DNA from: a virus
Lineage: Duplodnaviria > Heunggongvirae > Uroviricota > Caudoviricetes
Reading direction: 5' to 3' (one strand)
Length of the DNA stretch: 45,329 nucleotides
Virus record (IMG/VR): IMGVR_UViG_2541047734_000008
Location: 1-45,329 of that record
This document shows positions 2,745 to 44,928 of this stretch, piece by piece (position 1 is the first letter of the stretch; each line of letters starts with the position of its first letter). The notes below the pieces were generated by a model. It was not told the DNA's origin. It searched no databases and was given only the letters and a program-made list of their open reading frames with translations. Made by a program: the position numbers and the translations under genes.

Positions 2745-3091
2745 TCTCACTCCCATCAGGTACCCGTATCTGGCTCGTTGCCGGCGTTACCGATATGCGT
2801 AAATCCTTCAACGGACTGGGAGAACAGGTACAACATGTGCTGAATGATAATCCCTTCTCCGGTCACCTGTTTATCTTCCGTGGCCGACGGGGTGACACCG
2901 TCAAAATTCTTTGGGCTGATGCTGATGGTCTGTGCCTGTTCACCAAACGCCTGGAGGAAGGCCAGTTTATCTGGCCTGCGGTACGTGACGGCAAGGTATC
3001 CATTACCCGCTCGCAACTGGCAATGCTCCTCGATAAGCTGGACTGGCGTCAGCCAAAAACATCCAGCCGTAACTCACTGACAATGTTGTAA
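2741..3091 (+). CDS. IS66-family TnpB (orf2)
   Basis: 116 aa, overlaps orf1 stop (ATGA); MISLPSGTRIWLVAGVTDMRKSFNGL... typical IS66 Orf2. Confidence 0.8.
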   Translation: MISLPSGTRIWLVAGVTDMRKSFNGLGEQVQHVLNDNPFSGHLFIFRGRRGDTVKILWADADGLCLFTKRLEEGQFIWPAVRDGKVSITRSQLAMLLDKLDWRQPKTSSRNSLTML

Positions 3092-3121: not shown

Positions 3122-4735
3122 ATGAGTCAGAAATACCTCATTCGCATCGCAGAGCTGGAAAGGTTGCTCTCTGAGCAGGCTGAAGCCCTCCGTCAGAAAG
3201 ACCAGCAACTGAGTCTGGTTGAAGAGACGGAAGCCTTCCTGCGCTCTGCACTGACACGTGCCGAAGAAAAGATCGAAGAAGATGAACGGGAAATAGAACA
3301 TCTGCGGGCTCAGATAGAAAAACTGCGCCGGATGCTGTTCGGTACCCGTTCTGAAAAACTGCGTCGTGAAGTTGAACTGGCTGAGGCTCTGCTGAAACAA
3401 CGTGAACAGGACAGCGATCGTTACAGTGGGCGGGAAGACGATCCTCAGGTTCCCCGCCAGTTGCGACAGTCGCGCCATCGTCGTCCGTTACCGGCACACC
3501 TTCCCCGTGAAATACACCGCCTGGAGCCAGAAGAAAGCTGTTGCCCGGAGTGTGGCGGTGAGCTGGATTATCTGGGGGAAGTCAGCGCTGAACAGCTGGA
3601 ACTGGTGAGCAGTGCCCTGAAAGTGATCCGCACAGAACGGGTAAAAAAAGCCTGTACAAAATGTGACTGTATTGTTGAAGCACCGGCGCCGTCCCGCCCG
3701 ATAGAGCGTGGTATCGCGGGCCCCGGATTACTTGCCCGCGTGTTAACGGGAAAATACTGCGAACATCTGCCACTGTATCGTCAGAGTGAAATCTTTGCCC
3801 GCCAGGGTGTCGAACTGAGCCGGGCCTTACTCTCCAACTGGGTTGACGCGTGCTGCCAGTTAATGACACCGGTGAATGATGCCCTGTACCGTTATGTAAT
3901 GAACACCCGCAAGGTTCACACTGATGACACACCGGTAAAGGTACTGGCACCGGGTCAGAAAAAGGCGAAAACAGGGCGTATCTGGACGTATGTCCGGGAT
4001 GATCGCAATGTGGGTTCGTCATCTCCTCCAGCGGTCTGGTTCGCGTACTCGCCGAACCGGCAGGGGAAACACCCGGAGCAACACCTCCGCCCCTTCCGGG
4101 GTATCCTGCAGGCGGATGCGTTCACAGGTTACGACAGGTTGTTCAGTGCAGAACGTGAAGGTGGTGCACTGACAGAAGTTGCGTGCTGGGCCCATGCCCG
4201 GCGAAAAATCCACGATGTATACATCAGCAGCAAAAGTGCGACGGCAGAAGAAGCCCTGAAGCGAATCAGTGAACTGTACGCCATCGAGGATGAAATACGG
4301 GGATTACCGGAGTCAGAGCGTCTTGCCGTCAGGCAGCAGCGAAGCAAAGTGTTACTGACGTCGCTGCATGAATGGATGGTGGAGAAGAATGGTACGCTGT
4401 CGAAAAAATCCAGACTGGGCGAAGCGTTCAGCTATGTACTGAATCAGTGGGATGCCCTCTGTTATTACAGTGATGACGGTCTGGCGGAGGCGGATAATAA
4501 TGCTGCGGAAAGAGCGCTTCGTGCAGTCTGTCTCGGAAAGAAAAACTTTATGTTCTTTGGCAGCGATCACGGCGGCGAGCGTGGAGCACTGTTGTACGGG
4601 CTGATCGGCACCTGCCGTCTGAACGGTATCGATCCGGAAGCGTATCTGCGCCATATCCTGAGCGTACTGCCGGAATGGCCTTCCAACCGAGTTGATGAAC
4701 TCCTGCCATGGAACGTAGTACTCACCAATAAATAA
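3122..4735 (+). CDS. IS66-family transposase (orf3)
   Basis: 537 aa with N-terminal coiled-coil/leucine-zipper, CxxC...CxxC zinc motif and DDE-type core; third ORF of the triad. Confidence 0.85.
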   Translation: MSQKYLIRIAELERLLSEQAEALRQKDQQLSLVEETEAFLRSALTRAEEKIEEDEREIEHLRAQIEKLRRMLFGTRSEKLRREVELAEALLKQREQDSDRYSGREDDPQVPRQLRQSRHRRPLPAHLPREIHRLEPEESCCPECGGELDYLGEVSAEQLELVSSALKVIRTERVKKACTKCDCIVEAPAPSRPIERGIAGPGLLARVLTGKYCEHLPLYRQSEIFARQGVELSRALLSNWVDACCQLMTPVNDALYRYVMNTRKVHTDDTPVKVLAPGQKKAKTGRIWTYVRDDRNVGSSSPPAVWFAYSPNRQGKHPEQHLRPFRGILQADAFTGYDRLFSAEREGGALTEVACWAHARRKIHDVYISSKSATAEEALKRISELYAIEDEIRGLPESERLAVRQQRSKVLLTSLHEWMVEKNGTLSKKSRLGEAFSYVLNQWDALCYYSDDGLAEADNNAAERALRAVCLGKKNFMFFGSDHGGERGALLYGLIGTCRLNGIDPEAYLRHILSVLPEWPSNRVDELLPWNVVLTNK

Positions 4736-41935: not shown

Positions 41936-42361
41936 TCAATGTACTGCCACAGCATTTCCTGCCGGGCCACCACGGTTCATCTGATTGAAACCGGCGATTG
42001 CCACTGCGACAAAATCATCAGCGTCTCTCACCAGTCGCTCCCGCGTCTCCACCAGCTCCCGAAAATAAGCTGAACTGTGGCTGCGCATTCTGGCCACCAG
42101 CAAAGGTGGCATTGCCTTTTCGATCGCTGGTAACAACGCCTGAATTTTTTCAACTGCATCAGGGGTGTCTTTCTCTACCCAGCGGAAAATTTTCTGGGTA
42201 TTGCGAGCCAGGGCTTCCGGATGGCTGTCGTCATACAGTTCTGGGAACGTCATACCCAGTTCAAAATAAGCCCTGGTTATTTCAGCTGCCGGAACTTTTT
42301 CACCGTCCGGATGCGCCCAGGCATTCATCGCCATGCGGATGTGTTCATGCTTGATTTTCAT
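41936..42361 (-). CDS. YdaT-like regulatory protein (cII-position analog)
   Basis: 141 aa, MKIKHEHIRMAMNAW..; between cro-like and O-like genes. Confidence 0.5.
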   Translation of the reverse strand: MKIKHEHIRMAMNAWAHPDGEKVPAAEITRAYFELGMTFPELYDDSHPEALARNTQKIFRWVEKDTPDAVEKIQALLPAIEKAMPPLLVARMRSHSSAYFRELVETRERLVRDADDFVAVAIAGFNQMNRGGPAGNAVAVH

Positions 42362-42626
42362 GAATCAAGCTCCTAGAAAGTGGTTGTGTTAACGTTTTGG
42401 TATCTTCCAGCTCGGGCCAAATATTCATCCAATCAAAAGGCCTTAGTTGCTGACGTGTAACTTCACCATTACTGGCTCGCTCAATAAGGACGCATAACGA
42501 TGCCCCTAACACTTGACCTTTACTCAATGCCTTTCTTAGATAACCGATGCTGGTACCACACTCGCATGCAAACATACGCTGTTCATCTGACGAAAGAGAA
42601 TTGAGAAATATTCTTAATTCTTCCAT
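42345..42626 (-). CDS. Cro/YdaS-like HTH regulator
   Basis: 93 aa, ..CGTSIGYLRKALSKGQ.. HTH; divergent from the repressor gene. Confidence 0.6.
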   Translation of the reverse strand: MEELRIFLNSLSSDEQRMFACECGTSIGYLRKALSKGQVLGASLCVLIERASNGEVTRQQLRPFDWMNIWPELEDTKTLTQPLSRSLIHENQA

Positions 42627-42653
42627 AGCTACTCCTTAGTAAACACAGTAAAG

Positions 42654-42733
42654 AATACCCACAGGTAAACAAAAGTCAATACCCACAGGTTGTTTACCTT
42701 GCGGTAATCGCATCTATTATTTACCTATGGACA
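42654..42733. promoter_or_regulatory. Divergent promoter/operator region of the immunity switch with repeated TACC-N4-GGTA sites
   Basis: AATACCCACAGGT at 42654..42666 and 42679..42691; TACCTATGG overlapping the repressor start codon. Confidence 0.55.
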
Positions 42734-43146
42734 AATATGAATTTAGACGACAGCAACTCATCAAAATTCGTGATGAGAAATGCGATGGTAAAGCGGTTAA
42801 CGTGGCCAGAAAGATCGGGCGCGAGCCTTCTTATGTATCAAGAATGTTGTACCCAGAGGGGAAAAAGGGAAAAAAACGGATCGCTGATGATATGGTGGAG
42901 ATTATCGAAGAGTCCTTTGGGTTACCCCGGGGATGGATGGATGGTATCGTTTCATCATCAACGAACACAGCCTCCAGTTATGAAACAAGGGTTCTAACGC
43001 CACGACAACGTATTTTTTTAGATCTCTTAGACGAACTGCCAGAAAGTGAAGCGGATAACTTATTAAAAACTCTTGAAGAGAAAAAACAGTATTACAATAT
43101 GATCTACGAAGAAATCCGTAAAAAGAAAGCACAAAACGCATCATAG
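42727..43146 (+). CDS. DicA-like HTH repressor
   Basis: 139 aa; HTH ..AVNVARKIGREPSYVSRML..; C-terminus ..FLDLLDELPESEADNLLKTLEE.. resembles DicA. Confidence 0.65.
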   Translation: MDKYEFRRQQLIKIRDEKCDGKAVNVARKIGREPSYVSRMLYPEGKKGKKRIADDMVEIIEESFGLPRGWMDGIVSSSTNTASSYETRVLTPRQRIFLDLLDELPESEADNLLKTLEEKKQYYNMIYEEIRKKKAQNAS

Positions 43147-43188
43147 CTCACCAAACAACTAGTCACCAGTTAAGACACCGCAAAAAGT

Positions 43189-43225
43189 TACCCATGGGTA
43201 TTTACTTTTTAAATACCTATGGGTA
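43189..43225. promoter_or_regulatory. Palindromic operator-like sites downstream of repressor gene
   Basis: TACCCATGGGTA (perfect 12-bp palindrome, 43189..43200) and TACCTATGGGTA (43214..43225). Confidence 0.5.
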
Positions 43226-43411
43226 TCCTTCTTTTCATACCAACCCACCCCGCCCCACAGAATGCAGGGCAATACTTCGAGTTACCAGGCAGTGGTCAGG
43301 GGTTAAGTAGCCAGCCCGAGGCGTAAGAACATGACGGCAGGGTTCAACTTTAATAACTATGCAGCAGGTTTTTGTTCCGCTACCCCAGCGTTAAGGGGAA
43401 ATGAGGTCAGC

Positions 43412-43945: not shown

Positions 43946-43967
43946 TAGCTAACCAACGAGGCTAATA

Positions 43968-44297
43968 ATGGAATTTAAAGATTTACCAATGCAATTCCAG
44001 GAAATGGCAGCGAATATAGTTCGTTCCCAACTGGCGACTCTTGACCTGAGTACCGTAGAAAAAGAAACCATCGATACTATATCCGGTAACGTGCGTCGTG
44101 CCTTTATCGGTCTGTACGAAGAGAAGCAGCTCTCTGATAACCAGGATTTACATGAAAAATACTTCCTGGATCTAATGGACATCATTAATAAGGGGTTTGG
44201 CTTGTTAATGGAAAAGAAAGGGATTCGGATAGAACCCCTTGAAAATTGCTTCGTAACAAGAAGCATCAATTCTTTTGATTCAAAACAAGAGAATTAA
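43968..44297 (+). CDS. Hypothetical protein
   Basis: 109 aa ORF continuing the rightward operon. Confidence 0.45.
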   Translation: MEFKDLPMQFQEMAANIVRSQLATLDLSTVEKETIDTISGNVRRAFIGLYEEKQLSDNQDLHEKYFLDLMDIINKGFGLLMEKKGIRIEPLENCFVTRSINSFDSKQEN

Positions 44298-44541
44298 TTA
44301 CAGATTTAACATGCTCTTTCTCATGATTGAAGCTCTCAGGGTTGAAAGTGCCCGGCTGAAGCGAGTCGATATAATCAACGAGATTCTTTCGTACCGTTTC
44401 ATCTTTATTCATGGCAGATGCAAGGTATGAAATTGCTAACAATGTTATATCACTACGCGCCGCAGCATGCTGTAGTGTTTTATCAAAATCATTAATTTTC
44501 CGTATAAGAGAGTTAAGAGTTTCATTGACATCAAACCCCAT
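44266..44541 (-). CDS. Hypothetical protein (convergent)
   Basis: Start at MGFDVNETLNSL.. preceded by AGGAGG 7 nt upstream; the track's 202 aa extension is not supported. Confidence 0.5.
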   Translation of the reverse strand: MGFDVNETLNSLIRKINDFDKTLQHAAARSDITLLAISYLASAMNKDETVRKNLVDYIDSLQPGTFNPESFNHEKEHVKSVINSLVLNQKN

Positions 44542-44875
44542 TTCATCCTCCTGAGGGTTAGTAATTAAGGAGTTCTCCACGGGTGAGGTGGAGTGCGTGC
44601 GCCGGACACGGGTGAGCATCCGGCACTGACAGTTTACTGAAAGGATATCTCCCTGAAAAGTCAGGGCATAACGCGAAAGCGCACGGCGAAGTTGTTGGTT
44701 CATAGATAGCCTGTCGTTAAATTTTCGTCGACCGTGCGCTTCCGGTTGTGGCACTCCGCGAAATGGCGCGGCGGTAAGTATGGCGGGGTTATTCCTTCCC
44801 CGTTGAGGACACCGGGTTGTCAGGTTGACCATACGCTTAAGTGACAACCCCGCTGCAACGCCCTCTGTTATCAAT

Positions 44876-44928
44876 TTTCTGGTGACGTTTGGCGGTATCA
44901 GTTTTACTCCGTGACTGCTCTGCCGCCC
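44876..44928 (+). ncRNA. dicF: DicF-like small RNA (cell-division inhibitor sRNA of Qin-type prophages)
   Basis: TTTCTGGTGACGTTTGGCGGTATCAGTTTTACTCCGTGACTGCTCTGCCGCCC followed by TTTTT matches the remembered DicF sequence; context ydfA-ydfB-ydfC upstream. Confidence 0.7.

Follow-up and report, generated by a model that had tools for sequence, protein, structure and literature searches.

Which DNA sites govern the immunity of a lambdoid prophage of Escherichia coli whose repressor gene occupies the place of dicA, and which regulators are likely to read them? The question arises from a stretch of 45,329 bp of prophage DNA, here called the window and analysed over its whole length, in which a divergent pair of regulatory genes separates the replication functions from an operon for cell-division inhibitors. 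A sequence-only reading of this DNA had pointed to five related sites with TACC-N4-GGTA symmetry on both sides of a DicA-like repressor gene and had proposed that they form the operators of the immunity switch. Operators flanking the repressor gene on both sides, as parts of such a switch, now have strong comparative support from 41 loci of other species and from phage mEp043, although the list of sites and the description of the repressor both had to be revised. We describe below the sites, the protein that probably reads them, their conservation and promoter register, and the alternative functions that some of them might have.

Gene setting of the immunity region

On the minus strand, a cro-like gene (42345..42626) encodes a protein of 93 aa that is 73% identical to the Cro of mEp043 and only weakly YdaS-like, its score against the YdaS family PF15943 (25.8 bits) being below the cut-off of 30. 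It is followed on the same strand by a cII equivalent of the YdaT family (41936-42361; PF06254, 39.6 bits against a cut-off of 21), and beyond the ydaT-like gene by genes for a replisome organiser and then for Ren-like, RusA, Q and lysis functions, with HNH also annotated (PHROG). Divergently, on the plus strand, the repressor gene is followed by ydfA, ydfB, ydfC, the DicF RNA and dicB. Past ydfC comes the DicF small RNA (44877-44928, plus strand; Rfam RF00039, 76.7 bits), so that the left operators described below would control the dicF-dicB operon, as in the Qin prophage. The 1.1-kb immunity region is covered to at least 80% in 822 of 5,426 complete E. coli genomes, in which the repressor is annotated as a hypothetical protein.

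A site for a further regulator of the same switch is also present. Nowhere in the window but at 42351..42368, where the sequence is TTGATTTTCATGAATCAA, is the binding site of the CII-equivalent YdaT matched exactly; this site covers the stop codon of the cro-like gene together with the beginning of the ydaT-like gene. The primary YdaT site of prophage CP-933P, which has the same motif and position as 42351-42368, was DNase-footprinted at the same gene junction (PMC9986795). Further along the plus strand, about 590 bp between ydfC and dicF (43966-44555) are missing from an otherwise 97–99% identical prophage in NZ_CP016546; this segment contains an ORF at 43968-44297 that belongs to phrog_6937 (unknown function), and it overlaps an antisense ORF at 44266-44874 that has no family.

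Candidate operator sites

An exact search of the whole 45,329-bp window for TACCNNNNGGTA returned four matches against 0.28 expected, a number that was reached in none of 100 shuffles, and all four (starting at 42656, 42695, 43189 and 43214) fall inside 570 bp around the repressor gene. Allowing one mismatch adds the site at 42680 (TACCCACAGGTT) to the four exact ones. The five sites noted earlier and the site at 42695-42706 make six candidates in total, of which those at 42656, 42680, 42695, 43189 and 43214 are supported as operator candidates; we name them after their lambda equivalents.

Three of them lie between the divergent genes. The OR1 equivalent (TACCCACAGGTA, 42656..42667) is an exact match with perfect arms and a YRYR centre, the OR2 equivalent (TACCCACAGGTT, 42680..42691) has one mismatch and adjoins the -35 hexamer of the cro promoter, and the OR3 equivalent (TACCTTGCGGTA, 42695..42706) is again an exact match with perfect arms and has a centre that is not YRYR. 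The two upstream copies of AATACCCACAGGT that had been claimed are indeed present at 42654-42666 and 42678-42690, but they are not equal sites, as the first is perfect while the second is imperfect, with GGTT as its right arm. All five sites of the earlier list exist, although the list passed over the perfect TACCTTGCGGTA at 42695-42706 and included a site that we regard as doubtful, TACCTATGGACA at 42722..42733. This last site does overlap the repressor ATG at 42727 as described, but as an operator it has two mismatches, both in an arm that does not vary elsewhere, is not conserved and is without comparative support.

The remaining two sites follow the repressor gene. Both palindromes were correctly reported, namely TACCCATGGGTA at 43189..43200 and TACCTATGGGTA at 43214..43225, each an exact match. 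To call them sites downstream of a gene gives their location correctly but incompletely, as they very probably constitute the left operator of an early-left promoter: the distal OL2 equivalent (43189) adjoins the -35 of this promoter and the proximal OL1 equivalent (43214) lies in its spacer. OR1 and OR2 are 24 bp apart, OL2 and OL1 25 bp, and OR2 and OR3 15 bp centre to centre, and the OR and OL pairs are separated by 533 bp.

The repressor protein

The repressor gene (42727..43146, plus strand) encodes 139 aa. In an AlphaFold2 model, residues 1-75 are confidently predicted as a helix-turn-helix domain, residues 77-87 as a disordered linker and residues 92-138 as a helical hairpin of the DicA type. 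Closest to this model in structure is Rep of Salmonella phage SPC32H, which is controlled by an antirepressor; XRE-type regulators come next. The DNA-binding domain, which comprises the N-terminal ~75 residues, has no Pfam match even at E<=10 and was assigned to no family by NCBIfam, and a sequence search of the PDB with the repressor gave matches at chance level only. Residues 1-75 are nevertheless widespread, sharing 38–82% identity with repressors from 41 gamma- and betaproteobacterial species, with 70–82% identity to the N-terminus of many S24 repressors of 220-240 aa (Salmonella, Edwardsiella, Klebsiella, Pantoea and others) and 65% to the N-terminal domain of mEp043 CI. The recognition helix, REPSYVSRMLY, is nearly invariant across the homologous repressors and identical in mEp043 CI.

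The earlier description of this protein as DicA-like holds for the position of its gene and for its C-terminal module but fails for the DNA-binding domain, which is not HTH_3. The last ~50 residues resemble the C-terminal part of DicA, to which BLASTP aligns residues 89-134 only (33% identity, 46 aa, E 1e-7), and they also align to the CI of phage Tritos; in both DicA and Tritos CI the C-terminal module shared with the window repressor is preceded by an HTH_3 domain. The NCBIfam DicA model NF007257 scores 23.9 against a cut-off of 101, with only model positions 81-131 matching. Full membership in the DicA family was rejected, given the partial match below the cut-off of NF007257 and the absence of HTH_3 at E<=10.

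Most of the relatives of 220-240 aa carry the S24 autoprotease domain PF00717, to which the window repressor has no match, so that its induction presumably does not proceed via RecA cleavage. Presumably the inducing agent would be an antirepressor, or else some other signal directed at the C-terminal domain of the DicA type. A search of the window found no homolog of the antirepressor Rem, nor did PHROG annotation of the early and late genes nearby reveal an antirepressor. An ORF in the +2 frame (42737-42997) overlaps the repressor gene, and the database proteins P0015 and P0018 begin in it and then rejoin the repressor frame, which indicates that in some E. coli genomes the repressor gene has been frameshifted and is decaying.

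A literature search on the TACC-N4-GGTA motif, the operators of mEp043 and DicA/DicC of O157, with subscription journals outside its reach, returned nothing on this operator type. The family of the DNA-binding domain and the TACC-N4-GGTA operator thus appear to be undescribed, while the architecture of the switch itself is classical lambdoid.

Conservation of the sites across related loci

For the comparison, we took one locus per species carrying the N-terminal domain (n=41; Enterobacterales, Aeromonas, Neisseria, Burkholderiales and Xanthomonadales) together with phage mEp043, which makes 43 loci with the window included. A scan of IMG/VR yielded 80 loci that were all 100% identical and hence of no comparative value. 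Offsets were counted from the repressor ATG, relative to which the window sites are at -71, -47 and -32. The motif search across related immunity regions that the sequence-only reading had suggested found the sites conserved at fixed offsets from this codon. At the OR1 position (-71 to -75, typically -72), 38 of 43 loci have a site, perfect in 35 of them, and at the OR3 position (-32 to -35) there is one in 37 of 43 (26 exact). The OR2 position (-47 to -50) is occupied in 34 of 43 loci, with 1 exact match, 27 sites with one mismatch and 6 with two, and the mismatches are always in the right arm, which reads GGTT, GGGA, GGTC or GGCC. The TACC and GGTA arms are essentially invariant, the central 4 bp and the flanks vary, and across the loci the centres are YRYR in OR1 and OR2 and not in OR3. 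The consensus operator of the TACC-N4-GGTA immunity type may be written as tTACC-YRYR-GGTAa.

The downstream pair is found in 32 of 43 loci, with a spacing of 24-26 bp between its sites (25-26 bp except in one locus). It lies 43 to 2169 nt past the repressor stop, beyond the repressor operon. Sites at the same positions are of other types where the DNA-binding domain is another one, namely GTAC-type in Tritos and TTAG...CTAA-type in Qin. Lambdoid immunity specificity is thus recognizable in this family, in that the same domain goes with the same sites (38/43 loci) and a different domain with different ones. The comparison also indicates what selection acts on, which is the invariant arms, the weak middle site and a fixed distance to the probably leaderless start of the repressor message.

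A Cro homolog is encoded divergently upstream in 33 of 42 related loci. Its presence and that of OR2 go together, with 33 loci having both, 7 neither and 3 being discordant, and OR2 is therefore tied additionally to Cro or to the context of the cro promoter. As OR2 tracks the Cro homolog and not the repressor domain, it could be mainly a Cro site or an element of the promoter context. Four Klebsiella loci that have neither a Cro homolog nor OR2 retain OR1, OR3 and the OL pair, and here the sites follow the repressor domain.

Some loci show related sequences of their own. The Klebsiella loci L006, L009, L010 and L012 have variant right operators at ~2925-3000, with an unrelated sequence that contains TTGCTATATTTT in place of OR2 and the Cro homolog. 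In mEp043, TTACCTG-N10-CAGGTAA lies upstream of the left operators (3547-3570 of L003), with a gap of 14 bp instead of 4 between TACC and GGTA, and the upstream region of an Advenella locus (L041) has TACC-N12-GGTA. Tritos (L002), the CI of which is of equal length to the window repressor, has GTAC-centred repeats at 3300-3390 and 3880-3930 where the window has TACC-N4-GGTA, and a mosaic junction between Tritos and the window lies at ~43240, just past the left operators.

Promoters and their register with the sites

A promoter scan called a leftward cro promoter, equivalent to PR (42652..42679, minus strand), with TTGACT as -35 (42679..42674), a 16-nt spacer and TATTCT as -10 (42657..42652). 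OR1 overlaps the first 2 nt of this -10 plus the spacer. The promoter is well preserved throughout the family (TTG of the -35 in 31/31 loci; TA of the -10 in 36/36 and its final T in 31/36), and across the family its -35 directly adjoins OR2 and the first two bases of its -10 belong also to OR1. In the opposite direction, the scan called a repressor maintenance promoter, equivalent to PRM (42693..42720, plus strand), with TTTACC as -35 (42693-42698), a 16-nt spacer and TATTAT as -10 (42715-42720). Family-wide, the left arm of OR3 is the -35 of the repressor promoter, and in the window OR2 has its centre 41.5 bp ahead of the first base of the repressor start codon. When it activates PRM, the CI protein of lambda occupies at OR2 a position of ~-41.5.

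In 36 loci the -10 of the repressor promoter finishes at a distance of 6-8 nt from the initial A of the start codon, and only 5 of them have a Shine-Dalgarno-like tetramer ahead of this codon. The window has no such tetramer, and the A of its ATG (42727) is the 7th nt after the -10. That this interval stays constant across so broad a phylogenetic spread speaks for a leaderless mRNA, and the repressor mRNA probably starts at the A of the ATG. The cI mRNA of lambda is known to be leaderless.

The early-left promoter, equivalent to PL or to dicBp (43201..43229, plus strand), was read manually, with TTTACT as -35 (43201-43206), a 17-nt spacer and TATCCT as -10 (43224-43229). Its hexamers are weak in the window (8/12 to consensus, just below the threshold of the scan, which did not call it) and stronger in other loci (TTGACn and TAGACA for the -35; TATATT and TAATAT for the -10). 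Throughout the loci, the distal site always adjoins the -35 and the final TA of the proximal site always starts the -10. The promoter leads to ydfA-ydfB-ydfC-dicF-dicB in the window, and to lambda-like nutL and N in mEp043, a working lambdoid phage.

Alternative functions of the sites

The two OL palindromes could instead form, mainly or in addition, the intrinsic terminator of the repressor gene, where it would stop read-through into the toxic dicB operon, which we think unlikely. An RNA hairpin of the two sites with UUCUUUU behind it (43185..43241, plus strand) was found by scan as a terminator-like match, with a 16-pair stem and a 5-nt loop followed by TCCTTCTTTT; its folding energy is -22.9 kcal/mol (z -6.3 versus shuffles). 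A terminator role is conceivable because the repressor stop is only 42 nt from the first OL site, with no other hairpin between, and some terminator is to be expected here since mEp043 has a separate, clear one upstream of its OL. However, two like palindromes close to each other always pair, so that the hairpin comes free as an automatic result of their similarity, and its stem is A/U-rich (G-C pairs 5/16). The T-run, moreover, is missing in the closest relative (Salmonella) and in most loci, and is broken by a C in 3 of 6 other E. coli strains aligned, while the pair itself is conserved as TACC-N4-GGTA with a fixed -35/-10 geometry at any distance from the repressor gene. As it is this promoter-operator geometry that is conserved, a pure terminator was rejected as the main function. 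Termination as the sole function is very improbable, and as a function added in this lineage it has a slightly better, though still low, probability than the reading as a whole.

The site at the start codon (42722-42733) might be a fourth right-operator site that adds negative autoregulation at +1 of the repressor promoter, a role to which we give little credence. In its favour, TTTACCTA on the left makes an excellent half-site, TATG at the centre fits YRYR, the GGAC of the right arm retains the GG of the degenerate OR2 right arms, and the site is invariant in seven E. coli variants, but these copies are too alike to be informative. TACC is found at this position in none of the 42 other loci, and the closest non-E. 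coli relative (Salmonella, 84% identical) has TACTTATGGATA there. As the right half is fixed by the conserved Met-Asp-Lys codons, only a 4-mer is left as extra sequence, and positions 11-12, which are TA invariantly in OR1 and nearly so in OR3, are AC. As a feature of the family the start-codon site was rejected, being absent from all other loci including the Salmonella relative. It is, finally, highly improbable that the sites are recognised by the Cro-like protein alone, with the repressor binding elsewhere. As this idea would have it, 33/42 loci have inherited the site set together with the Cro homolog, and loci that have lost Cro have lost OR2 too; against it, the four Klebsiella loci without a Cro homolog have kept the repressor domain with OR1, OR3 and the OL pair, the operators change where the C-terminal module carries another DNA-binding domain (Tritos, DicA), and the recognition helix is as nearly invariant as the arms.

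A proposed switch and its known counterparts

We consider it highly likely that the five TACC-N4-GGTA sites are operators of the CI-type repressor and, very probably, also of the Cro-like protein, in a bistable switch of the lambda style. Repressor dimers bound to OR1 and, possibly by cooperation, to the weaker OR2 would cover the -10 and spacer of the cro promoter and flank its -35, which would keep off cro along with the ydaT-like equivalent of cII and the genes for replication. With its centre at -41.5, the dimer on OR2 might at the same time assist the repressor's own promoter. OR3, over the -35 of that promoter, may serve negative autoregulation or be the preferred target of Cro, which would use the same sites in a different order. 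OL2 and OL1, which lie on either side of the -35 and reach into the -10 of the promoter of ydfA-ydfB-ydfC-dicF-dicB, would keep the toxic division inhibitors silent. The equal spacing of the OR and OL pairs (24-25 bp), at 533 bp from each other, makes lambda-like looping conceivable, which is speculation; and as OR2 and OR3 are only 15 bp apart, compared with 23-24 bp in lambda, their interplay may differ from that of the lambda sites.

The lambda switch, which is established knowledge summarised in PMC10448788 and PMC8630535, resembles that of the window in its divergent repressor and cro genes, its three right operators interleaved with PR and PRM, its weak middle site centred at about -42 from PRM, its leaderless repressor mRNA (probable in the window), its further group of operators over PL, beyond the repressor gene, and the spacing of 24-25 bp between paired sites. 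It differs in having 17-bp operators, compared with the 12-bp TACC-N4-GGTA of the window, and three OL sites instead of two. The DNA-binding domains of lambda CI and the window repressor have no detectable sequence relationship, and the window copy is without the S24 domain.

Closer in some respects is CP-933P of E. coli O157:H7, in which PaaR2, YdaS and YdaT are associated with a leaderless repressor mRNA and clusters of OR and OL sites (PMC8630535). Common to both prophages are a short, non-cleavable CI analogue, a CII of the YdaT type and the presence of OR and OL; the YdaS of CP-933P has as its counterpart in the window a Cro that is only weakly YdaS-like, and the leaderless repressor mRNA one that is probably so. 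The CP-933P YdaT site TTGATTN6AATCAA has its perfect copy in the window at the same gene junction. The operators of CP-933P are, however, 18-bp repeats with the consensus GTTTAGTAA, the TACC-N4-GGTA type has not been reported there, and the toxin-antitoxin pair that follows PaaR2 has no counterpart at this place in the window.

Qin shares with the window the order of a cro-like gene, a repressor gene and ydfA-ydfB-ydfC-dicF-dicB, with the window repressor in place of dicA. DicA has the homologous C-terminal ~50 residues and, like the window repressor, no RecA cleavage site, but it differs in its HTH_3 DNA-binding domain and its TTAG...CTAA operators. The operators of DicA and DicC in Qin are situated in the divergent intergenic region and on the dicB promoter, dicBp, and repression by DicA is relieved by the antirepressor Rem, not by RecA (PMC10448788).

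Phage mEp043, on the other hand, agrees with the window in the DNA-binding domain, in Cro (73% identity), in operators at the same offsets and in the geometry of PL, but its CI has 228 aa with an S24 autoprotease domain and controls an N-antiterminator operon. A published description of the mEp043 operators was not found in the literature covered, which left out subscription journals. DNA specificity and induction domain have thus been swapped independently across the family.

The map of the sites gives a precise set of candidate operators for an immunity type that is found in 822 of 5,426 complete E. coli genomes, and in which the repressor would silence dicF and dicB, which inhibit cell division; the general view of how such switches work is left unchanged by this system. 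More tentatively, and with some doubt on our part, the repressor domain, operators and Cro may make up a cassette common to Gamma- and Betaproteobacteria that is coupled interchangeably to an SOS-cleavable S24 protease (mEp043) or to a non-cleavable DicA-type hairpin (window), with OL doubling as a terminator of the repressor transcript in this lineage. If this were true, the copy that ~15% of the complete E. coli genomes carry, O157, O111 and ST131 strains among them, would confer superinfection immunity to mEp043-type phages, and a repressor of the window type could keep an SOS-inducible phage with the same immunity from being induced where both reside in one cell.

Variation within E. coli

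Among seven variants of the 121-bp right-operator region, a small sample, 8 of 10 variable columns are in site centres, arms or the -35 of the cro promoter. The variable centres read CACA, TACA or CATA at one site and CACA or CTTG at another, and substitutions in the arms are confined to a few strains (AACC in OR1 of one, AGTA in OR3 of two), so that some cryptic E. coli copies may carry operator mutations. When the E. coli copies L128-L133 are set beside 42620-42740 of the window, polymorphism is concentrated in the 4-bp centres of the sites.
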